A stretch of 17,515 bases of DNA from a virus. Lineage: Duplodnaviria; Heunggongvirae; Uroviricota; Caudoviricetes. Location: IMG/VR virus record IMGVR_UViG_2554235124_000002. The stretch is one strand, 5' to 3'. The notes beneath the pieces were generated by a model that saw nothing but the letters and a program-made list of their open reading frames with translations, had not been told where the DNA came from and did no database searches. Position 1 is the first letter of the stretch; the number at the start of each line of letters is the position of its first letter. Positions 1 to 17,515 of this stretch are shown piece by piece. Made by a program: the position numbers and the translations under genes.

Positions 1-2467
<2,467 letters not shown>

Positions 2468-2486
2468 TCACGCTCCAGAAACGACA

Positions 2487-2506
2487 AAACCGCCCGGAGG
2501 CGGTTT
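2487..2506 (-). terminator. Terminator-like stem-loop in the I-J intercistronic gap (sense strand AAACCGCC-UCCG-GGCGGUUU followed by a U-rich run)
   Basis: Plus strand 2487-2506 is aaaccgcc cgga ggcggttt, a perfect 8 bp inverted repeat with a 4 nt loop. On the mRNA-sense (minus) strand it is followed by UUUUGUCGUUUCU. Function not established. Confidence 0.4.
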
Positions 2507-2524
2507 CACATAAAACGTTTTTCA

Positions 2525-3198
2525 TCAACGACCAATCACCACAACCTGACCACCGTCCCCCTCGTCTGCCGTGCTGATCTCCTGAGAAACCACCCGCGAC
2601 CCCACGCGCATTTCACCGTACAGAACGGGCAGAACATTGCCCTGGGCAACCATGTTATCCAGTGAGGAGAAATAGGTGTTCTGCTTACCGTTATCCGTAC
2701 TCTGCTGTACGTGGGAGTCCTAGCTTTCGGTGCCAACATCTGCGCCACACCACCAAGCACCATACTGGCACCGAGAGAAAACAGGATACCGGTCATACCA
2801 CCGGCCCCAATGGCTGCCCCCCATGCTGCAAGGGTGGCTCCGGCAGTAAAGAATGATCCGGCAATGGCGGCAGCCCCCAGAACAATCTGGAATACGCCCC
2901 CTGACTTGGCCCCGGCGACTCTGGGAACAATATGAATCACAGCGCCGTCAGGCAGAACCTCATGTAACTGCGCCGTCAACCCGGACGTGCTGACGTCCCG
3001 CCCGGCAATCCGTACCTGATACCAGCCGTCGCTCAGTTTCTGACGAAACGCCGGGAGCTGTGTGGCAAGCGCCCGGATGGCTTCAGCCCCCGTTTTCACA
3101 CGAAGGTCGATGCGGCGGCCAAATCGTTGCAAATCCCCGTAAAGGCAGATGCGTGCCATGCCCGGTGACGCCAGAGGGAGTGTGTGCGTCGCTGCCAT
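2525..3198 (-). pseudogene. I: Tail tip assembly protein I, reading frame disrupted by a frameshift near 2711-2712
   Basis: Track ORF 2536..3198 matches lambda gpI through ...VAQMLAPKARTP (about 162 aa), then reads a non-homologous tail. The lambda-like C-terminus DNGKQNTYFSSLDNMVAQGNV...ISTADEGDGGQVVVIGR-stop is intact in a different frame and ends at 2525, exactly 60 nt before J. The frame switch is about 2 nt after the Pro codon at 2713-2715. Confidence 0.75.
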
Positions 3199-3840
3199 TT
3201 GTCGGTATACCTCTCTCGTTTGCTCAGTTGTTCAGGAATATGGTGCAGCAGCTCGCCATCACCACAGTAAATGGCGGCATGATTCGGCACCGATGAACCA
3301 AAACAGCACAGCAGCACATCGCCCGGTTGTGCTGATGACAACGGCACCTGATACAGCCCTGTGGCCTCCAGATTATCCAGATAGAGATTCTGACCGTGAC
3401 GCCACCAGTCATCCCCGCGATGAAAATCCGGCATCTCAATCCCCGCCAGATGATAAGCATCCCGGAACAGCGTGTAACAGTCCGTCACCCCGTGCTCAAA
3501 GCGCCGCCCGGTAAGATGCGGCACACAGCGGAACTTATGAATCGTCACCCCGGCAGACCAGCCACCACGGCAAATCACTCTGCACCTGCAGCCGCCGGTC
3601 AGCCTCACTCAGCCAGGGCAGACCACCGGGGTGGCTGTGGACCAGCGCCACAATCTCACCCTGCATTTCTGCCCGCAGCCAGTCCTCCGGCGACATACGG
3701 AAATACGCCTCCGGCTCACCGGAGATATTCACGCAGGGAAAATATCTTTCCCCCTCCGGCGTGCTCACCACGAAGCCACACGACTCCGCTGGCGCACATC
3801 GCCGGGCGTGCGCCAGAATCGCTGATTCTGTCTGTGTCAT
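3096..3840 (-). pseudogene. K: Tail tip assembly protein K (N-terminal MPN/JAMM-like domain plus C-terminal NlpC/P60-like domain), split by a +1 frameshift near 3546
   Basis: Track ORF 3535..3840 (101 aa) is the lambda K N-terminal part, with the HSHPGG...SEAD JAMM-like motif, and ends ...PWWLVCRG then DDS-stop. Track ORF 3096..3608 in another frame carries the rest of K from TIHKFRCVPHL... to ...TFV. Read directly: sense CTG GTC TGC CGG GGT GAC GAT TCA TAA, where one extra nucleotide separates the CRG and TIHKF frames. Start is 5 nt after the L stop; the 3' end overlaps the I start by 103 nt, as in lambda. Confidence 0.75.
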
Positions 3841-3845
3841 GGGAT

Positions 3846-4544
3846 TTACTGCGAAAGTTTGTTAATGGAAAGGAAGCCGCCAAAGTTGCCGACGTTATTG
3901 CGGAACTTACAACCGCTCAGGCATTTGCTGCATTTATCCTTCGTGATATCGGACGTCGGCTGATCATATTCATCCGCGACAGCCGGACCGCGATAACCGC
4001 ACTCATCACCGCGATAGGTCCAGGTGCAGGTGTTGGCCAGCATGATACGTCCCGGAAAAACAGCGCCATCCGTTTCCGTCGGCGTGGACAGTACAAAAGA
4101 GGCACTCACCGCGCTCAGTTCGCTGCACTGCTCAATGCGCCAGCGGCTGATCACCTCCTGCTCCGGATCGGCATAACTGTTTCCGTTGACGAAGTTCACC
4201 GCATCCAGAAAACGGGCGTAAACCTTACGCCGGACCACCGTTCCGCCGACCAGACTCTGCAGATCTTCCGCCATCCCGGTGACCATACCGTACAGGTTAG
4301 AAACCGTCAGCGTGGGGCGCGTACTGGTGCCTTTGCCATTCAGTTCAAAACCACTCCCCTGAATGGGATACGGCTGATACTGTCGCCCCTGCCAGGTGAC
4401 CGGCTCACCTTTTTCGTTCTGCTCATTACAGAAAAAATAACGTTCTCCACCGACCTCTGTCAGATCGATTTCCCAGAGCACCACGCTGGCCGACTGCTCC
4501 GCACGGGTGCATTCATTCAGTGTTTCCTGCCGGATATCCTGCAT
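3846..4544 (-). CDS. L: Tail tip assembly protein L (C-terminal cysteine cluster)
   Basis: Track ORF of 232 aa, same length as lambda gpL; sequence MQDIRQETLNECTRAEQSASVVLWEIDLTEVGGERYFF... Start overlaps the M stop by 1 nt, as in lambda. Confidence 0.93.
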   Translation of the reverse strand: MQDIRQETLNECTRAEQSASVVLWEIDLTEVGGERYFFCNEQNEKGEPVTWQGRQYQPYPIQGSGFELNGKGTSTRPTLTVSNLYGMVTGMAEDLQSLVGGTVVRRKVYARFLDAVNFVNGNSYADPEQEVISRWRIEQCSELSAVSASFVLSTPTETDGAVFPGRIMLANTCTWTYRGDECGYRGPAVADEYDQPTSDITKDKCSKCLSGCKFRNNVGNFGGFLSINKLSQ

Positions 4545-4873
4545 CAGTTCACCACCTGTTCAAACTCTGCGCTGAACTCAACACGCAACATACTGACCCG
4601 CGACGACCATTTTGCGCAGGTCACCTTTATCTGCCGCCACCCATAAGGCGGCGTCCACAGAAAGGACTTCCAGCCCCCGTGCTCAGCCAGAAACGACTCC
4701 AGCACCGTGGCCTCCTCACGGGAGACAGAAAGCGTCACGCTGTACGTTTTCAGGTCAGCATTCAGCCCGGCAGGCGCACGCTGAGAATAGCCATCACCAA
4801 AGCGCACCTCCCTGACAGAAGGAACCGAAGCCACATCCATACCGGGTTTCACTTTCCAGCGGAAGGTCTTCAT
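4544..4873 (-). CDS. M: Tail tip protein M
   Basis: Track ORF of 109 aa, MKTFRWKVKPGMDVASVPSVREVRFGDGYSQRAPAGLNADLKTYSVTL..., matching lambda gpM in length and sequence; 4 nt overlap with the H stop. Confidence 0.93.
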   Translation of the reverse strand: MKTFRWKVKPGMDVASVPSVREVRFGDGYSQRAPAGLNADLKTYSVTLSVSREEATVLESFLAEHGGWKSFLWTPPYGWRQIKVTCAKWSSRVSMLRVEFSAEFEQVVN

Positions 4874-7431
4874 CGTCCACCTCCGGAGAACAGACCACCA
4901 TCACGCATCTGTGCCTGAATTTCATCACGGGCACCCTTGCGGGCCATGTCATACACCGCCTTCAGAGCAGCCGGACCTATCTGCCCGTTCGTGCCGTCGT
5001 TGTTAATCACCACATGGTTATTCTGCTCAAACGTCCCGGACGCCTGCGACCGGCTGTCTGCCATGCTGCCCGGTGTACCGACATAACCGCCGGTGGCATA
5101 GCCGCGCATCAGCCGGTAAAGATTCCCCACGCCAATCCGGCTGGTTGCCTCCTTTGTGAAGACAAATTCACCACGGTGAACAATCCCCGCTGGCTCATAT
5201 TTGCCGCCGGTTCCCGTAAATCCTCCGGTTGCAAAATGGAATTTCGCCGCAGCGGCCTGAATGGCTGTACCGCCTGACGCGGATGCGCCGCCACCAACAG
5301 CCCCGCCAATGGCGCTGCCGATACTCCCGACAATCCCCACCATTGCCTGCTTAAGCAGAATTTCTGTCATCATGGACAGCACGGAACGGGTGAAGCTGCG
5401 CCAGTTCTGCTCACTGCCGGTCAGCATCGCCGCCATATTCTGCGCAATACCATCAAAGGTCTGCGCGGCTGCACTTTTAACCTGCGACATACTGTCCGTG
5501 GCGCTCTCTTCCCACTCACTCCAGCCGGACTTCAGGCCTGCCATCCAGCTCCCGCGAAGCTGGTCTTCAGCCGCCCAGGTCTTTTTCTGCTCTGACATGA
5601 CGTTATTCAGCGCCAGAGGATTATCGCCATACTGTTCCTTCAGGCGCTGTTCCGTGGCTTCCCGCGCTGCCTGCCGGTCAGTCAGCCCCCGGCTTTTCGC
5701 ATCAATGGCGGCCCGTTTTGCCCGTTGCTGCTGTGCGAATTTATCCGCCTGCTGCGCCAGCGCGTTCAGGCGCTCCTGATACGTAACCTTGTCGCCAAGT
5801 GCAGCCAGCTGGCGTTTGTACTCCAGCGTCTCATCTTTATGCGCCAGCAGGGATTTCTCCTGTGCAGACAGCTGGCGACGTTGCGCCGCCTCCTCCAGTA
5901 CCGCGAACTGACTCTCCGCCTTCCACAAATCCCGGCGCTGCTGGCTGATTTTCTCATTTGCTCCGGCATGCTTCTCCAGCGTCCGGAGTTCAGCCTGAAG
6001 CGTCAGCAGGGCAGCATGAGCACTGTCTTCCTGACGATCGCCCGCAGACACCTTCACGCCGGACTGCTTCGGCTTTTTCAGCGTCGCTTCATAGTCCTTT
6101 TTCGCCGCCGCCATCAGCGTGTTGTAATCTGCCTGCAGAATTTTCCCGTCCTTCAGGGCCTTATTCAGTTCTTCCTGACGGGCGGCATATTTCTCCAGCG
6201 GCGTCTGCAGCCGTTCGTAAGCCTTCTGCGCCTCTTCGGTATATTTCAGCCGTGACGCTTCAGTATCGCTCTGCTGCTGCGCATTTGTGTCCTGTTGACT
6301 CTGCTGTTCAGCCTTCTTTCGCGCGGCTTCAAGCGCAAGACGGGCCTTTTCACGATCATCCCAGTAACGCGCCCGCGCTTCATCGTTAACAAAATAATCA
6401 TCCTTGCGCAGACTCCAGATGTCGTCCGCTTTCTTAAACGCAGCCTCTGCCTTAATCAGCATCTCCTGCGCGGTATCAGGACGACCAATATCCAGCACCG
6501 CATCCCACATGGATTTGAATGCCCGCGCAGTCCTGTCTGCCCAGGTCTCCAGCGTACCCATGTTCTCTTTCAGGCGGCGGGTCTGGTCATCAAACCCTTT
6601 CGTCGCGGCCTCGTTCGCCGCCTGCAATGCCCCGGCTTCATCGCCGGAACGCTGCAACTGAGCAACATACGCAATCTGCTCCGCCGTCACGTTATGGAAC
6701 TGGCGTGCCATCGCCGTCAACCCCGACGTCGGGTCTGTGGTCAGCTTCCCGAAGGCTTCAGCGACCTTGTCCACCTCCACACCGGATGCAGAGGAGAAAC
6801 GCGCCACACTCTGGCTGATGGACGCAATCTGAGCCTCACCGCTTACCCCCGCCTTAACCAGTGCGCTGAGTGACTCGCTGGTCTGGTTAAACGTCAGCCC
6901 AGCCGCCTGCCCGGCTCTGGACAGGACCAGCATACGATCTGCCGTCAGACCCGACTGATTGCCGGAAAGGACCAGCGTTTTGTTGAAATCGGACAGGGTT
7001 GAGTTGCCCTGATACCAGGCATACGCCAGCGCACCGGTCGCCACCGCCAGCGAGGTGGCCCCGACCATCGGCAGGGTGATCGCACCGGCAAGCCCCCTGA
7101 ACATGGGGATCATCCCGCCGAAGGAGTCCTTCACCTGACCACCCTGTTGCAGCAGGATCAGCCACGGACTTTGCCCGCCTGCAAGCTGCGTGGCCACGTC
7201 GGTGAACTGTGCAGGCAGCATACGCATGGCGGCTTTATACTGCCCGACGGAAATCCCCGCTTTCTGTGCAGCCAGCGCCTGCCGGCTCAGCGACTGTTCA
7301 ACGACTGCCGCTGTTTTTTTCGCATCACTTTCCGTACCGGAAAAATGACGCCTGACTCTGGCCATCTGCTCGTCAAATCTGGCCGCATCCAGACTCAAAT
7401 CAACGACCAGATCGCCTACCGGTTCAGCCAT
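4870..7431 (-). CDS. H: Tail tape measure protein H
   Basis: Track ORF of 853 aa, identical in length to lambda gpH; coiled-coil-rich centre and Gly-rich C-terminal region; start overlaps the T stop by 8 nt, as in lambda. Confidence 0.95.
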   Translation of the reverse strand: MAEPVGDLVVDLSLDAARFDEQMARVRRHFSGTESDAKKTAAVVEQSLSRQALAAQKAGISVGQYKAAMRMLPAQFTDVATQLAGGQSPWLILLQQGGQVKDSFGGMIPMFRGLAGAITLPMVGATSLAVATGALAYAWYQGNSTLSDFNKTLVLSGNQSGLTADRMLVLSRAGQAAGLTFNQTSESLSALVKAGVSGEAQIASISQSVARFSSASGVEVDKVAEAFGKLTTDPTSGLTAMARQFHNVTAEQIAYVAQLQRSGDEAGALQAANEAATKGFDDQTRRLKENMGTLETWADRTARAFKSMWDAVLDIGRPDTAQEMLIKAEAAFKKADDIWSLRKDDYFVNDEARARYWDDREKARLALEAARKKAEQQSQQDTNAQQQSDTEASRLKYTEEAQKAYERLQTPLEKYAARQEELNKALKDGKILQADYNTLMAAAKKDYEATLKKPKQSGVKVSAGDRQEDSAHAALLTLQAELRTLEKHAGANEKISQQRRDLWKAESQFAVLEEAAQRRQLSAQEKSLLAHKDETLEYKRQLAALGDKVTYQERLNALAQQADKFAQQQRAKRAAIDAKSRGLTDRQAAREATEQRLKEQYGDNPLALNNVMSEQKKTWAAEDQLRGSWMAGLKSGWSEWEESATDSMSQVKSAAAQTFDGIAQNMAAMLTGSEQNWRSFTRSVLSMMTEILLKQAMVGIVGSIGSAIGGAVGGGASASGGTAIQAAAAKFHFATGGFTGTGGKYEPAGIVHRGEFVFTKEATSRIGVGNLYRLMRGYATGGYVGTPGSMADSRSQASGTFEQNNHVVINNDGTNGQIGPAALKAVYDMARKGARDEIQAQMRDGGLFSGGGR

Positions 7432-8262
7432 ACCTGACTCCTCCTGCGATCCCTTCTGATACTGTCATCAGCATTACGTCATCCTCCGTCATGTCCGCCA
7501 CATCCGGGGAAGCGGGGATAACTTCATTCCCGTCCGGGCCAAAGCGGACACCTCCGGCAAGCCCTGCCGCTTTCTGCATCAGCACATCATCTTCAGGCTC
7601 TTCATCAGCCTCGCGCCGGTTCAGCAGACTGAAATCCAGCGGATGCATATCCGGATCGCTGAAAAACAGGCTGAGTACGGTGTACGTCAGCCCGGAAAAG
7701 TGCATATCCAGCAGAACATCATGAAAATAATGGGTACTGTAAAAGCGGTGCCAGTCGGCATACTCCGTGGATGACATCCCGGCAAGCATGGCGCGCCAGT
7801 CGGGTCGCCCCATCTCACGCGCCAGTTTCAGGGCAAAACTCAGCTCACCGTCGAACACTTTCCCGCAGAAACAGGCTCTGCAGGCCCGGCGTCCTCTGCC
7901 TGTTCGGGGGCATTATTCACCACAAACTCATACATACCGGACAGCCGGTACACCACGTTTTCAGCATGAGAAATTGCCTCTGTGGGCCAGGTGGTAAGCA
8001 CTTCCTGCTCAATCTGTTTAACGGCTTCATTCATGGAAGGCAGCTGCGTCTTCTTCGGATGGTTATGCCACAGGGACATCGCCACCAGAAACGCGCCGGT
8101 TCTGATGACGTCTTCCACAGTAAACTGCCGGTTGCTGTCGGACCCCGCCGGTTCTGCCTGCCGTTTCATCAGGGCAAGATGCTCAATACGCTGCAGGGCT
8201 GACAGTTCAGAAAGCGTGACGGTCACACCGTTATATTCAAATGATTCGGTTTTCAGGAACAT
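7424..8262 (-). CDS. T: Tail assembly chaperone G-T fusion, made by programmed -1 ribosomal frameshift from G into the T frame
   Basis: T-frame ORF 7424..7858 (144 aa, no independent start context) overlaps the 3' end of G; slippery heptamer G GGA AAG sits at the junction. Classic lambda G/G-T arrangement. Confidence 0.85.
7840..8262 (-). CDS. G: Tail assembly chaperone G
   Basis: Track ORF of 140 aa, MFLKTESFEYNGVTVTLSELSALQRIEHLALMKRQAEP..., ending ...AGKCSTVS; same length as lambda gpG; 15 nt gap after V, as in lambda. Confidence 0.95.
   Translation of the reverse strand: MFLKTESFEYNGVTVTLSELSALQRIEHLALMKRQAEPAGSDSNRQFTVEDVIRTGAFLVAMSLWHNHPKKTQLPSMNEAVKQIEQEVLTTWPTEAISHAENVVYRLSGMYEFVVNNAPEQAEDAGPAEPVSAGKCSTVS
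7858..7864 (-). other. Programmed -1 frameshift slippery heptamer GGGAAAG (G GGA AAG in the G frame)
   Basis: Plus 7856-7864 is cactttccc, so the sense strand reads GGGAAAGTG. In the G frame it is GCG GGA AAG TGT..., in the -1 frame GGG AAA GTG TTC GAC... = the T-frame sequence (track shows MFDGELSF). Confidence 0.85.
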
Positions 8263-8277
8263 CGCTGACTCTCCGGA

Positions 8278-9018
8278 TTAACTGGCGGTGACGGTGATTT
8301 CTGCAACCGCAGCAAACTCACCATTACCAGATACAACCGGAATGTTGACCTTGCCTGCAGCAACACCGTTCACGGTGATGGTCATACCACTGACCGACAC
8401 GGTGGCTTTTGTTTTATCCGCAGACACCGCACGGAAGCTCTTGTCGGTTGCGCCCTCCGGCTGGAATGCCACGGTCAGCGTGGTGCTCTGCCCTTTCACT
8501 ACGGAAGCACTGGCGGGTGTCACCGTCATGCCGGTTGTCGCCGTCACCGTGCTGCGATCTTCTGCCATCGACGGACGTCCCACATTGGTGACCTTCACCG
8601 TGCGGGTAATCACTTCCTTCGCCGTCACCGCCTTACCGATACTGCTGACCCAGCCACGGAACACATCGACCGTGCCGTTCGGGAAGCGGATTTTATAGGC
8701 ACGGGTATCACCTTCATTAAACCACGCCAGCAGCGCCTGCTGCCCCTGCTCTCCGGGCATCCACGCCAGCGTGAAGCTGGTATCTCCGGCAGATTTCTGC
8801 CCCTGCCCGGTCGCAGTCCAGTCCGCATCTTCATCATCGAGATAGCTGTCGTCATAGGACTCAGCGCTCAGTTCGCCGGGCGTCAGGTCTTTAACTTTAG
8901 CCAGACGCGACCAGTCAACGTCTGAAAGCGGATTCGCATAAGGGTCACCGCTCCCCTTATAAACCCACAGGGTGGTCCCGGCACCTTTCACCGGCATTAC
9001 AGGATTTGGTACAGGCAT
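8278..9018 (-). CDS. V: Major tail tube protein V with C-terminal Ig-like (Big_2-type) domain
   Basis: Track ORF 8278..9048 (256 aa); homology to lambda gpV begins at the internal Met [30 protein letters not shown]..., giving 246 aa as in lambda and a 7 nt gap after U. C-terminal ~80 aa are rich in T/V/S, typical of the gpV Ig-like domain. Confidence 0.9.
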
Positions 9019-9025
9019 AGCGTCC

Positions 9026-9421
9026 TCACATTTCATAGGTAATGACATAAGTCAGATCGGCTGAACTCCACAGGCCCGCATCATCGTCGCGCCGGTAGTC
9101 ATAGCCACTGGCCACCATACTGGTGATCAAATCTGACAGTGCCGGGACATCACTCATCACCGGATAAATCCGGGACTCCATCCACGAATCCAGCTCTGAA
9201 TCCGGCACCTGAGCAGGCAGGAAAACTTCAATATGCAGCTCCGCCTGCCAGGTATCGCTGTCCAGCTCTTCGCCCGTGTATTCAGCGCCGGTGAGATAAA
9301 CGGCAACTGCCGGAAAATCCGCCTCATCAAAAACAGCGGGGCGACCATCAAAAAACGTCGCCCCGGTGTCATGCTTCTCCAGTGCATCCAGTACGGCTGC
9401 ACGGAGTTCAGTATGTTTCAT
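9026..9421 (-). CDS. U: Tail terminator protein U
   Basis: Track ORF of 131 aa, [43 protein letters not shown]..., lambda gpU length and sequence; 4 nt overlap with the Z stop. Confidence 0.95.
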
Positions 9422-9996
9422 CGCTTTATTACCATCCTCAGTTGATGCTGCAGCGCATAGCCCAGCTCTTTCGGAAGACGTTCACGCCGTATCCGCTCAA
9501 TATTCTGTTTAAACGCCGTGGTAAGCGGCACCGCCATCGGGATTTTCACCACATCAATGGGGTAACGGTTTTTCCCGGCCACACGCTGCATGACATGCCA
9601 CCGGCCATTTTTCAGTTGCTGAATAAACGCGCCGGGAATACGACGGTTTCCCACCACAAGCACGCTGCCGCCACCTTTCAGGGATGAACGCTGCCCCTTT
9701 TTACGACGCCTGCGTCGGGACAGGACAACCCGCGCGTTACCCAGCCTGATTACGGGCAAATCCCCCCGGTTAACCTTGATTCTGGCCTGCGGATTTTTGA
9801 CCGTGGCCCTTTTCAGCCTGGCCCTTTCCTTTACCAGTTTCCGGCGTACCTTTGTCTCACGGGCAACCTGTGACGCCGACTGCGATATCGCGGATGAAGC
9901 AACGCGGTTAATGGCCATTGCGGCGGCACCGGGCACCGCCGTTCTGCTGATACGGCTGAGGTTTTCAACGGCCTGCTCAAGACCTTTTATGGCCAT
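9418..9996 (-). CDS. Z: Tail completion protein Z
   Basis: Track ORF of 192 aa, MAIKGLEQAVENLSRISRTAVPGAAAMAINRVASSAISQ..., lambda gpZ length and sequence. Confidence 0.95.
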   Translation of the reverse strand: MAIKGLEQAVENLSRISRTAVPGAAAMAINRVASSAISQSASQVARETKVRRKLVKERARLKRATVKNPQARIKVNRGDLPVIRLGNARVVLSRRRRRKKGQRSSLKGGGSVLVVGNRRIPGAFIQQLKNGRWHVMQRVAGKNRYPIDVVKIPMAVPLTTAFKQNIERIRRERLPKELGYALQHQLRMVIKR

Positions 9997-10007
9997 ACAT
10001 CCCCCTT

Positions 10008-10361
10008 TCAGCGGCGACGGTTAACGGCAGGCGGTACGCCCCGCCCAAGCCAGAGATGACAGCTTCCGCCATCATCCGGCGAAACCCGGTCTATCCAGAA
10101 GTTTTCCTCACCGATGGTCAGCGTGTCGCCACGCCGCAGCTGCCGCACATCATCAGTCCGGACAAACAGGGACGGGCTGGAGCCTTCAACGCGCACGCCC
10201 TGTCCGGCATAGCTGATATTTTCAGGGTCATCAAAAACACCACGTATTACTGCGCCGGACTGCTCACCGGATGTCATGGTGGCTGACGTTCCCATGTACC
10301 CGCGTATCGTTTCATCGGCGCGGGCAATGGCAGCATCGAACAGGTTATCGAAATCAGCCAC
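10008..10361 (-). CDS. FII: Head-tail joining protein FII
   Basis: Track ORF of 117 aa, MADFDNLFDAAIARADETIRGYMGTSATMTSGEQSGAVIRGVFDDPENISYAG..., lambda gpFII length and sequence; 11 nt gaps on both sides, as in lambda. Confidence 0.95.
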   Translation of the reverse strand: MADFDNLFDAAIARADETIRGYMGTSATMTSGEQSGAVIRGVFDDPENISYAGQGVRVEGSSPSLFVRTDDVRQLRRGDTLTIGEENFWIDRVSPDDGGSCHLWLGRGVPPAVNRRR

Positions 10362-10372
10362 AGCGCCTCCCG

Positions 10373-10768
10373 TTATTGCATTCTGGCCAGGCCACGCTCT
10401 GTCATTTCAGCTGCCACACCGGCAGAGACACGAAACGCCGTTCCCGGCAGCACAAATGCCACAGCCTCATCCCGCGTGGCGTGAAGTGCATCAGTATGCA
10501 GCGTCACCAGTGCCACAACCGTGACCAGAGCAGCCGTATCAGTCACGGTATCCGGCTGCGCTGATACCACCTCATTTTCATGTCCGGTCAGCGCATTTTC
10601 CGGGCTGACAGACGTGTCCTGACCGGCAGCGTCATCCGTGTCATCAAGCTCCTCTTCCAGCTCTGCCACACGGAGCGCCAGTTCTTCTTTCGTCCCCGTC
10701 AGGCTGACATCACGGTTCAGTTGCTCACCCAGCGACCGGAGACGGGCAATCAGTTCATCTTTCGTCAT
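10373..10768 (-). CDS. FI: DNA packaging protein FI
   Basis: Track ORF 10373..10807 (144 aa); lambda gpFI homology starts at the internal Met MTKDELIARLRSLGEQLNRDVSLTGTKEELALRVAELEEELDD... The ATG at 10766-10768 is preceded by GGAGGAG and gives a 41 nt gap after E, as in lambda. Confidence 0.88.
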   Translation of the reverse strand: MTKDELIARLRSLGEQLNRDVSLTGTKEELALRVAELEEELDDTDDAAGQDTSVSPENALTGHENEVVSAQPDTVTDTAALVTVVALVTLHTDALHATRDEAVAFVLPGTAFRVSAGVAAEMTERGLARMQ

Positions 10769-10789
10769 GGACTCCTCCACAGAGAGAAA

Positions 10790-10807
10790 ATGGCCCCGAA
10801 GGGCCAT
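10790..10807 (-). terminator. Stem-loop immediately after the E stop: 7 bp stem AUGGCCC/GGGCCAU with a C(UUCG)G tetraloop, followed by UUUCUCUCU
   Basis: Plus 10790-10807 is atggccc cgaa gggccat, a perfect 7 bp inverted repeat with a 4 nt loop. On the sense (minus) strand the loop is UUCG closed by C-G; a U/C-rich run follows, then the FI Shine-Dalgarno and start. Confidence 0.45.
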
Positions 10808-10809
10808 GA

Positions 10810-11835
10810 TTACGCCAGTTGAACGGACACGAACTCATCAGGATCAGCCAGCAGCATCAGCGGTGCTGACTGAATCATGGTGAACTCACGCGCCGGATCG
10901 CCGGAGGTCACCCAGTTTTTCGGATAACGGGCAGACGCATTAATACCCTCACGCAATGCATCCGCATCCTGAATACAGCCATAGGTGCGCAGACCGCGAG
11001 CATGAGTGTTACCCAGCACCATCGTGTTGTCCGGCAGGAAGTTCTTTTTGACGCCGTTTTCCACGTACTGTCCGGAATACACGACGATGGCCACATCGCC
11101 ATACATTCCCTTATAAGACACCGCTTTGCCCAAGTCTTTTACCGCTGTCTCCAGCTCGGAATGAGAGCCGCGACGGGTATCCAGCTTCTCCCTGACGGCT
11201 TTGAAGGAACGGAACAGCGCCCAGCCTTTCGGATCAAACACGATGATATTCACCACACCGCTGGCGTTCAGCGCGTAGGCTTCGATATCGTCGGTCGGAT
11301 CATACGTGGACTTGTCACGCTTGCTCCACTCCGTGCCGCCGGACTGCGTGATGTTATTCGCCGCACTGCGGCCCATATCCACCTCAACCGGATCGAAGGC
11401 TTCACCAGTCATGGTATATTTGCCCTTAAGCACGGCAGAAACGGCCTGCATCTCTTCGACCTGAGCAATCGCCAGATCTTCATCAAGCATATTCTGCAGA
11501 ATAATACGACGACGACGGTAAGCCGGGTCAGCCAGATTCTGCGGATCTTCATCCGGCAGGCGACGCAGGGTCATCTGCGGATTCACCTCATGCTTGGGTT
11601 TGACATAACCCGGCGTAAATTCAGAGGTGGAGCCGCCACGGGAGCGGATAACCTCACCGGAAACAATCGGCGAAACGTACAGCGCCATGTTTACCAGTCC
11701 CGGAATTTGTGAGAGATAGACTTTCTCCGTAGTGAAAGGATAGCTCTCACGGAAAAACAGACGCAGAAACAGCGGATCAAACTTAAAGTGATGCTCAGTC
11801 GACGCCAGCAACTCGGCGGTTGTATACACAGACAT
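10810..11835 (-). CDS. E: Major capsid protein E
   Basis: Track ORF 10810..11862 (350 aa); lambda gpE homology begins at the internal Met MSVYTTAELLASTEHHFKFDPLFLRLFFRESYPFTTEKVYLSQIPGLVNMALYVSP..., giving 341 aa as in lambda and a 55 nt D-E gap as in lambda; ATG read at 11833-11835. Confidence 0.92.
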   Translation of the reverse strand: MSVYTTAELLASTEHHFKFDPLFLRLFFRESYPFTTEKVYLSQIPGLVNMALYVSPIVSGEVIRSRGGSTSEFTPGYVKPKHEVNPQMTLRRLPDEDPQNLADPAYRRRRIILQNMLDEDLAIAQVEEMQAVSAVLKGKYTMTGEAFDPVEVDMGRSAANNITQSGGTEWSKRDKSTYDPTDDIEAYALNASGVVNIIVFDPKGWALFRSFKAVREKLDTRRGSHSELETAVKDLGKAVSYKGMYGDVAIVVYSGQYVENGVKKNFLPDNTMVLGNTHARGLRTYGCIQDADALREGINASARYPKNWVTSGDPAREFTMIQSAPLMLLADPDEFVSVQLA

Positions 11836-11848
11836 AAAAAAATCCCAT

Positions 11849-11870
11849 AAAAAAAGCCGCACAGGCGGCC
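11849..11870 (-). terminator. Terminator-like hairpin in the D-E gap: sense GCCGC-CUGU-GCGGC followed by U7
   Basis: Plus 11849-11869 is aaaaaaa gccgc acag gcggc. On the sense (minus) strand this is a 5 bp all-GC stem with a 4 nt loop, followed directly by seven U, then AUGGGA, a second U7, and the E AUG. Confidence 0.45.
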
Positions 11871-11890
11871 TTTAGTGATGAAGGGGAAAA

Positions 11891-12223
11891 TTAAACGATG
11901 CTGATTGCCGTTCCGGCAAACGCGGTCCGTTTTTTAGTCTCGTCGCTGGCAGCCTCCGGCCAGAGCACATCCTCATAACGGAACGAGCCGGACTTGTAGA
12001 ACGTCAGTGTGGTGCTGGTCTGGTCAGCAGCAACCGCAAGAATGCCAACGGCAGCACCGTCGGTGGTGCCATCCCACACAACCAGCTTACGGGTAGAGCC
12101 ATCCAGCATCAGCGGGGTCATTGCAGGCGCTTTCGCACTCAATCCGCCAGGCGCAATTGCGGTATGAGCCGGATCACTGTTACCCAGCGGCTGGTAATGG
12201 GTAAACGCTTCTTTGCTCGCCAT
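11891..12223 (-). CDS. D: Capsid decoration protein D
   Basis: Track ORF 11891..12232 (113 aa); lambda gpD homology (110 aa) starts at the internal Met [43 protein letters not shown]..., which places the start 9 nt after the C stop, as in lambda. Confidence 0.88.
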
Positions 12224-12232
12224 AACTGCCAC

Positions 12233-12640
12233 TTATACCCGTAAAGCTTCAGGTGTATTAAGCAAATCGTTAACGGCATCAGATGCCAGGTTACCTGCAG
12301 CCAGCGGTGCCGGTGCACCCTGCATCAGACGATCCAGCGCAGTGTCACTGCGCGCCTGTGCACTCTGTGGTGCTGCAGCCAGAATGCGGCGGGCCGTTTC
12401 CACGGTCATTCCGGGGGTTTCTGCCAGAACGCGCGCCTGTTCTTCGCGTCCGTGAGCCTCCTCACAGTTGAGGATCCCCATAATGCGGCTGTTTTCTGCC
12501 GCAACCGCTGCGGTGATCTGCGCGTTCACGTCCGGCTGCGCCGCGCTGGCGTTTTCGCCCTCCGTCGCTGGCACCACGTCAGTAACGTCAGCCTGCGAAG
12601 CAGTGGCTGAAACAGTTGTTGATTGAGTCTCTTTGGTCAT
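12233..12640 (-). CDS. Nu3: Scaffolding protein Nu3, in-frame nested gene within the 3' part of C (internal start)
   Basis: In-frame internal ATG at 12638-12640 (MTKETQSTTVSATASQADVTDVVPATEGENASAAQPD...) preceded by a strong AGGAGG at 12645-12650 with a 4 nt spacer. Product is about 135 aa, acidic and Ala/Gln-rich, typical of a disordered scaffold. Lambda encodes Nu3 nested in C in this way. Exact start is uncertain; in-frame Mets further upstream (about 12832 and 12850) lack a good Shine-Dalgarno. Confidence 0.55.
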   Translation of the reverse strand: MTKETQSTTVSATASQADVTDVVPATEGENASAAQPDVNAQITAAVAAENSRIMGILNCEEAHGREEQARVLAETPGMTVETARRILAAAPQSAQARSDTALDRLMQGAPAPLAAGNLASDAVNDLLNTPEALRV

Positions 12641-13544
12641 TCGCCCTCCTGAGAGACGGGATTTACGTGCATCCAGTGCATCACGCATGACGGTGATCGC
12701 ATCGGTGCTGTTAACAAGTTCATCAGCCAGTCCGGCATCAATGGCCTCCTGACCGCTGTACACTGCAGCCTCGGTATCCAGCACAGCCTGCACGGACAGG
12801 CCGGTATATGCCGACACCTTCTGCGCAAACATCCGGCGGGTTGCATCCATCCGGGACTGCAGTGTCTCCCGGACATCATCCGGAAGATGGCTGTAGGGGT
12901 TGCCATCCACCTTATGGCTGCCGCTGTAAATCAGCGTGATTTCCACGCCCTGTTTCTCCAGCGCAGCACCGTAATTACTGTGAGCCATCATGACGCCGAT
13001 GGAGCCTGTCCGGGCGGTCTGCGTGACCAGACGCCGGGAGGCGGCGCTGGCAAGCAGCTGACCTGCACTGCAGTTCATGTCGTTGGCCAGCGCCCATACC
13101 GGCTTTATGTCACGCACACGGGCGATGATGTCAGCACAGTCAAATGCTCCCGCCACCATCCCGCCCGGCGTGTCCATATCCAGCAGAATGCCGTCCACCA
13201 TCGGATCGCTGGCAGCCTGTTGCAGACGGGCGATAATGCCGTTGTAACCGGTCATCCCCGAATACGGCTGCAGCGCCCGCGTCCGGCTGACCAGCGTACC
13301 GGACACCGGCAGCACGGCGATGCCGTTCATGACCTGATAACTGCGGGCCTGTCGTGGTCCGTCATCATCACCGGATAACGCCAGCGCCGCAAGTGCCTCC
13401 TGGGCAGTCAGGCTGTCGCCGGACACCGCATCCGTCAGGCGGCTGATCCCAAGCTGGCCTGCAAGCGCACAAAAGAAAACCCGCGCATAGGCGGGTTCAA
13501 GCATCAGCGGCTCATTAAAGGCCATGCTGGCAATATGCGGGAGA

Positions 13545-13564
<20 letters not shown>
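12233..13564 (-). CDS. C: Capsid assembly (prohead) protease C, S49/ClpP-like serine protease family
   Basis: Track ORF 12233..13699 (488 aa) extends upstream inside B. Lambda gpC homology begins at VTAELRNLPHIASMAFNEPLMLEPAYARVFFCALAGQ..., i.e. a GTG at 13562-13564 that overlaps the 3' end of B by 20 nt as in lambda. This gives 443 codons against the 439 I remember for lambda, so the start or a small indel is uncertain. Confidence 0.8.
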
Positions 13565-17245
<3,681 letters not shown>

Positions 17246-17271
<26 letters not shown>

Positions 17272-17515
17272 TCAGCAACCCCGGTATCAGTTCATCCAGC
17301 GCGGCTGCTTTGTTCATGGCTTTGATGATATCCCGTTTCAGGAAATCAACATGTCGGTTTTCCAGTTCCGGAAAACGCCGCTGCACCGACAGGGGGATCC
17401 CGTCGAGAATACTGGCAATTTCACCTGCGATCCGCGACAGCACGAAAGTACAGAATGCGGTTTCCACCACTTCAGCGGAGTCTCTGGCATTTTTCAGCTC
17501 CTGTGCGTCGGCCTG
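17246..17515 (-). CDS. Nu1: Terminase small subunit Nu1, C-terminal part only; the 5' end of the gene lies beyond the window end
   Basis: Track ORF 17246..17470 gives ...VETAFCTFVLSRIAGEIASILDGIPLSVQRRFPELENRHVDFLKRDIIKAMNKAAALDELIPGLLSEYIEQSG-stop, matching the lambda gpNu1 C-terminus from memory. The frame stays open to the window edge. A full 181 aa Nu1 would start about 275 nt past the window end, so cosB and cosN are not in the window. Confidence 0.88.

Follow-up and report, generated by a model that had tools for sequence, protein, structure and literature searches.

[quoted passage not shown] The part of gpI from residue 134/135 to 222/223 builds a trimeric plug inside the tail-tip lumen, where it touches gpJ and the gpH C-terminus (PMC10721106; PMC12617516). 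The Escherichia phages 2G7b, PhiR11_1, Perceval and HK630/lambda and the E. coli PSUO2 prophage share the gene order of the window (the whole stretch of DNA that we analysed, 17,515 nucleotides) at 96.9–98.5% DNA identity over 17.5 kb, and their K and I proteins have the same domains. In these relatives, K (247 aa) and I (223 aa) each occupy one uninterrupted reading frame, whereas the window carries one additional nucleotide in K and two in I. Identity over the whole window is highest with Escherichia phage 2G7b (98.5%), compared with 96.9% for lambda-type phages such as HK630 and 98.1% for prophages in complete E. coli genomes. At the DNA level, nearly each base of the window is seen in some relative.

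An exact-protein look-up showed that the window corresponds to a whole contig, APNX01000047.1 (17,515 bp), from the E. coli draft assembly GCA_000387785.2. Its genes are all encoded on the minus strand, in the order Nu1-A-W-B-C-D-E-FI-FII-Z-U-V-G-T-H-M-L-K-I-J. Both contig termini fall inside phage genes, J on the left (codon 821) and Nu1 on the right, and are assembly breaks. Based on gene calls and on the annotation of relatives, the 5' part of J (821 codons, positions 1–2464) runs off the left end, and the segment at 3846–17515 harbors L, M, H, T, G, V, U, Z, FII, FI, E, D, C/Nu3, B, W, A and the 3' end of Nu1, which runs off the right end. A first-pass annotation had described the genes other than K and I as intact, and this holds: 16 genes are complete and of normal length (A 641, W 68, B 533, C 443, D 110, E 341, FI 131, FII 117, Z 192, U 131, V 246, G 140, T 144, H 853, M 109 and L 232 aa), with only J and Nu1 truncated by the contig ends. 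Apart from the K and I lesions, we detected no deletion, IS insertion, pseudogene or module loss within the 17.5 kb of this contig.

Several other features of the window are worth recording. The heptamer GGGAAAG of the programmed −1 G-T frameshift is intact at 7858–7864 of the minus strand, just upstream of the G stop codon, as is the 144-aa T ORF that overlaps G. Among about 15 billion proteins, exact matches to the C, D, E, G, H and M products (within 4544–13564) were found on this contig only, and those to A, B, FI, FII, Z, U and T also occur on 8 to more than 1,000 other contigs. A six-way alignment revealed only two window-private substitutions, at 12231 and 12240, remote from the K and I lesions. 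Both sit at the C/Nu3-D junction, adjoining a 12-nt indel polymorphism, and a megablast comparison of the surrounding 111 nt (12185–12295) with complete E. coli genomes gave nothing above 83%.

Gene K, which encodes the lambda tail-tip assembly protein with a JAB/MPN domain followed by an NlpC/P60 domain, spans positions 3096–3840 of the minus strand and is split by a +1 insertion, as judged from its translation and from alignment to phage and E. coli relatives. Translation starts at 3840 and is normal up to Gly98, after which three wrong residues precede a stop codon (..LVCRG-DDS). The ORF as written (3535–3840, minus strand) thus encodes 101 residues ending in ..LVCRGDDS and comprises the JAB domain only (Pfam PF14464). 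The NlpC/P60 part follows in another frame that extends to 3096, and K as written therefore does not specify the single two-domain gpK polypeptide. The exact 101-residue product was found on this contig only. Deletion of one nucleotide restores a 247-aa protein with Prok-JAB at residues 3–104 and NLPC_P60 at residues 111–224.

The six-way alignment places the extra base of K at 3544–3547, in the plus-strand context AATCGTCACCCC. On the minus strand, the window reads CCGGGGTGACGATT where the five close relatives carry either CCGGGGGACGATT or CCGGGGTGAGATT. The natural alleles, aligned on the plus strand as AATCGTC-CCCC and AATC-TCACCCC, correspond on the minus strand to a lambda/2G7b type, CCGGGG-GACGATT, coding for G-T-I, and to a Perceval/PSUO2 type, CCGGGGTGA-GATT, coding for G-E-I. 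The window sequence at this site, GGGGTGACGATT, equals GGGG-GACGATT merged with GGGGTGA-GATT, with both optional bases present; the in-frame haplotypes would be GGGGGACGATT and GGGGTGAGATT.

The 90%-identity cluster of K N-terminal fragments has 1,440 members, of which the named ones listed are mostly labelled 'partial', and the fragments that we retrieved (P0006–P0019) end at residues 99–117, residue 99 being polymorphic (T, E or A). Draft contigs seem to break often near the K lesion site (3520–3560), as if the polymorphism were a common fork in assembly graphs. The annotated start of K varies among public records (3693–3840): the classic lambda start yields 199 aa in HK630, other records have a K of 224 aa, and in newer annotation K reaches 247 aa and includes the whole JAB domain.

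Gene I, which encodes a lambda tail-tip protein, occupies positions 2525–3198 of the minus strand, as indicated by its translation and by the Pfam Lambda_tail_I domain, with the normal frame ending at 2525. Alignments locate its lesion at 2699–2719 (minus strand CCCACGTACAGCAGAGTACGG) as a net gain of two nucleotides in a multi-base patch of allele differences, with the two extra bases placed within 2702–2712. The ORF as written spans 2536–3198 and encodes 220 aa, compared with 223 aa in lambda, but it is out of frame beyond about codon 163 (..APKARTP-TYSRVRITVSRTPISPHW..VVRLW, then stop), leaving about 57 C-terminal residues wrong. The wrong frame (2536–2712, minus strand) stays open for about 57 codons and terminates 10 nt short of the normal stop. 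An ORF length check alone would consequently call I intact (220 versus 223 aa), and frameshifts can be missed in this way. The ubiquitin-like domain PF06805 (Lambda_tail_I) is recognized at residues 14–97 with E = 1e-27 in both the written and the repaired protein, which identifies the N-terminal part of gpI, whereas the C-terminal plug region (134/135 to 222/223) is lost from about codon 164 as written. Removal of two nucleotides yields 223 aa and brings back the conserved C-terminus (..TDNGKQNTYFSSLDNMVAQG..VVVIGR).

The natural alleles at the I site are, on the minus strand, CCCCGTACACAGACAACGG or CCCACGGCAGCAAGTACAG; they can be aligned as one type with CCC-CGTACA-CAGACAACGG and another with CCCACG....GCAGCAAGTACAG. 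Between fixed anchors, this segment measures 39 nt in the window; of about 125 natural loci, drawn from IMG/VR and the reference phages, all except one have 37 nt. The window differs from the Perceval-type I allele by five edits, every one of which runs toward the 2G7b type. We considered a hidden, 21-nt in-frame third allele at this site, from which the window would have lost one base, and rejected it, as none such exists among the approximately 125 natural loci. One virus record (IMGVR_UViG_2531839454_000013, positions 10978–11041) has an I segment of 35 nt (−2), CAGAACCCCCGACACAGACAACGG, which also breaks the frame. Public records annotate I with 190, 201, 210 or 223 aa.

The frame disruptions reported for K and I by the first-pass annotation are thus both present on the minus strand, at these positions of the deposited sequence. 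Its description of two independent lesions is accurate as to the number of sites, but three bases have been inserted, which is not what two simple events would give, and the I ORF is hardly shortened. The two lesions also prove not to be independent in kind, since they share one unusual signature.

In the alignment of the full 17.5 kb with the five relatives, no indels besides the K and I lesions are private to the window, and the remaining indel columns are polymorphisms common to some relatives. Repair of both sites, by removing 1 nt from K and 2 nt from I, opens both genes and leaves no further defect. Neither insertion lengthens a homopolymer run, and neither is of the slippage type. We aligned the 2G7b-type and Perceval-type alleles with each other over 1896–4700 using blastn-like affine scoring, and compensated gap pairs appeared at only two coding sites in these 2.8 kb, which coincide exactly with the lesions in K and I; apart from these, the alignment has just two gaps, both true 1-nt indels between genes. 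Looser linear gap costs proposed four more candidate sites, at all of which the length of the window is unchanged. By a rough estimate, the chance that two random indels hit both patches of about 12 nt is near 1e-4. The bases at the K site and the whole I patch in the window can each be read from one or the other allele.

Over 1900–4700, the window has no private alleles and its nearest natural sequence is 47 differences away. A PSUO2-type and an R11-type parent account for this region save the three inserted bases, with 43 switches and 0 unexplained substitutions, whereas for natural sequences with a similar nearest-neighbour distance the best pair of parents leaves 11–28 bases unexplained. 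The window further contains 13 clusters of local 15-mers that none of the other natural representatives has (36 sequences in all), again with 0 private alleles; as natural sequences show up to about 6 excess clusters, the count of 13 is only suggestive. We treat the two-parent make-up and the unique proteins as supporting evidence only. The fine mosaic of 2G7b-type and Perceval-type variants was rejected as standalone proof of a chimera, because two-state sites make any third sequence a mosaic and the pattern spans the whole contig.

Neither lesion recurs in finished genomes. A 111-nt query across the K lesion returned 8,408 matches in 4,194 of 5,426 complete E. coli genomes, the best of which (110/111) is identical to the window but without the extra base; a 111-nt query across the I lesion gave, in complete E. 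coli genomes, full-length matches that at best span 109 nt. Neither the K nor the I lesion is thus present in about 8,000 copies from 5,426 finished E. coli genomes. The exact K or I lesion patterns are likewise missing from IMG/VR and from GTDB representative genomes, and the I hybrid core from IMG/VR, JGI metagenomes and GTDB representatives. A pattern designed to cover all observed I-site hybrids gave two matches in JGI metagenomes, both in unrelated DNA. Among about 15 billion proteins, the exact frameshifted K and I products were found on this contig only. A search for the same haplotype without the lesions, through exact matches to the L and V proteins, retrieved short metagenome contigs only, and as these are 97–98.7% identical to the window at the DNA level they do not belong to its lineage.

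The 90%-identity cluster of the frameshifted I protein has three other members, two of which are encoded by metagenome contigs of great length (988 kb and 1.55 Mb). In ERZ28759310 contig_245, the I site reads CCCACGTACAGCAGACAACGG (+2) and contains the hybrid core of the window between different flanks; this hybrid was not found in 7,772 copies from complete genomes, where the best match is 112/114. The K protein of this contig has 205 aa, owing to a +2 change near window position 3395. In ERZ28762391 contig_7591, the I site reads CCCACGTACAGCAAGTACAACGG (+4), V is 160 aa long and J is split into 550 and 628 aa. One pair of alleles has thus been joined out of register in three distinct ways, each in a single unfinished assembly. 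Because the three joins differ and none occurs in finished genomes, the I patch looks more like a place where consensus errors readily arise than like an inherited allele.

We interpret the K and I frameshifts as probable consensus errors of the draft assembly, arising from co-resident lambdoid prophages and not from mutations in the bacterium. The lesions are present in the deposited sequence; in the organism, they are probably not real. Merged near-identical copies in assemblies can yield frameshifts, and the K-I region is multi-copy in most E. coli genomes, with a median of 3 copies. In the scenario that we propose, the strain would, in common with most E. coli, contain two or more closely related lambda-like prophages, the second copy being one that we infer, with K-I regions of the two common allele types. 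In two short patches, these copies would differ at several adjacent bases, which an aligner would place as a compensating gap pair. If reads or alignments from both copies were then merged into one consensus, each gap column would be filled, and the outcome would be a sequence with bases from both alleles and an excess length of 1 nt in K or 2 nt in I.

This interpretation agrees with the anatomy of the lesions, with their location at sites of allele difference, with their absence elsewhere and with the draft-contig context, all of which we observed directly. As expected of an artefact, the lesions fall where the two allele types differ and contain bases of both, and the contig derives from a draft assembly and ends in repeated sequence. 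The breaks in J and Nu1 fit a repeated region and are typical for breaks at multi-copy prophage sequence. The first-pass annotation had offered two readings, a prophage in early decay with defective tails as its headline and local assembly error as its fallback. Our data favor the fallback, since the window is a whole draft contig, both alleles are joined out of register, the lesions are missing from finished genomes and hybrids recur at the I site. The headline is not favored, and the argument that two hits in one module indicate decay is weakened because both hits bear the same artefact-like signature.

Two considerations count against an assembly error. A pure de Bruijn assembler cannot make hybrid words that are absent from the reads. 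In addition, the window switches between variants 1–3 nt apart at 2588/2589, 3991/3992 and 4640/4641, and a plain majority vote per column would not easily yield switches as close as these. Taking all routes together, we find it somewhat unlikely that the lesions are real.

Real recombination between co-resident prophages could in principle leave an identical signature, and the strongest of the alternatives, if an unlikely one, is that the lesions are real and stem from recombination or gene conversion involving two lambdoid phages, either co-resident or co-infecting. A heteroduplex across K and I would have formed small bulges at the two mismatched patches, and repair of each bulge toward the extra base would have generated the frameshifts, leaving a prophage unable to build tail tips unaided. 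Such an exchange accounts for the presence of bases from both alleles exactly at the two compensated-gap sites and for the exact two-parent composition of 1900–4700. Co-residence of lambdoid prophages is the rule in E. coli, and the downstream frames of K and I are still perfect, as expected for a recent event. However, since co-residence is common, natural recombination hybrids should recur in finished genomes, and no such hybrid was found in the approximately 8,000 finished-genome copies, in IMG/VR or in JGI metagenomes. The other hybrids are confined to error-rich long metagenome contigs and their sequences differ. Moreover, two such rare outcomes are required in one element, and long-patch mismatch repair corrects neighbouring mismatches jointly, not independently. 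A broader version, in which the hybrids are real and out-of-register exchange between prophages is a recurrent, site-specific route to tail loss in otherwise intact prophages, appears more doubtful, and nothing in the finished genomes supports out-of-register exchange as a source of frameshifts.

Prophage decay is common, and independent spontaneous frameshifts in a prophage at the start of decay would also be real lesions; K would then yield a JAB domain only, I would lose its C-terminal tail-tip part, and heads would form without infectious tails. The lesions do stand in the deposited sequence, and either would be disabling given the roles of gpK and of the gpI C-terminus (PMC12617516, PMC10721106). 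We nevertheless regard this origin as improbable. The insertions are not of the slippage type and both lie at allele-difference patches, the base inserted in K being that of the other allele, and the I site requires two insertions and two substitutions within 20 nt, all toward the other allele. Spontaneous mutation produces far more substitutions than indels, whereas in 17.5 kb the window has three inserted bases of its own and no more than two private substitutions. No other decay is seen in 18 genes, and the K and I frameshift products are found in no other assembly. Programmed frameshifts resembling the lambda G-T site, of which the window holds a true −1 example as a general precedent, can be dismissed, since neither lesion has a slippery heptamer, none of the approximately 8,000 natural copies has the extra bases, the site is not conserved and all relatives read K and I in one frame.

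Were the lesions real, that of K would part the JAB domain from the NlpC/P60 domain, and that of I would put other residues in place of roughly two thirds of the structural part of gpI. Each of them should prevent infectious tails from forming, so the functional reasoning of the first-pass annotation is sound. The element would then be an ordinary defective prophage at an early stage, capable of making heads but no tail tips, which is a well-known kind of object. If they are artefacts, it would be wrong to class this lambda-like prophage module as defective, and multi-copy prophage genes in draft or metagenome assemblies can gain frameshifts at predictable sites of clustered differences. The finding is ordinary in both cases, being either an error of assembly or a defective prophage of a common kind.

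The window can finally be set beside three kinds of described cases. The E. coli K-12 elements DLP12, Rac, Qin and e14 have lost whole modules and contain IS elements and large deletions. Like these defective lambdoid prophages, the window represents a lambda-family prophage in an E. coli chromosome with morphogenesis genes inactivated, if the lesions are real; unlike them, it has all 18 module genes in colinear order and is three extra bases away from a functional module. The single stf frameshift of laboratory lambda, which the literature describes as a laboratory adaptation of known effect, removes a tail component (PMC10721106) and leaves the phage infectious. Both cases involve frameshifted tail genes in the lambda family, whereas the K and I changes occur in one draft contig and hit proteins required for the tail tip. 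The third likeness is to consensus errors from merged repeats or strains, in which, as here, a draft contig is broken in repeated phage genes, indels occur only at clustered allele differences and the bases of both alleles are kept. Kindred, non-identical hybrids are found in the two long metagenome contigs that have other broken genes, a likeness that holds at the level of sequence.
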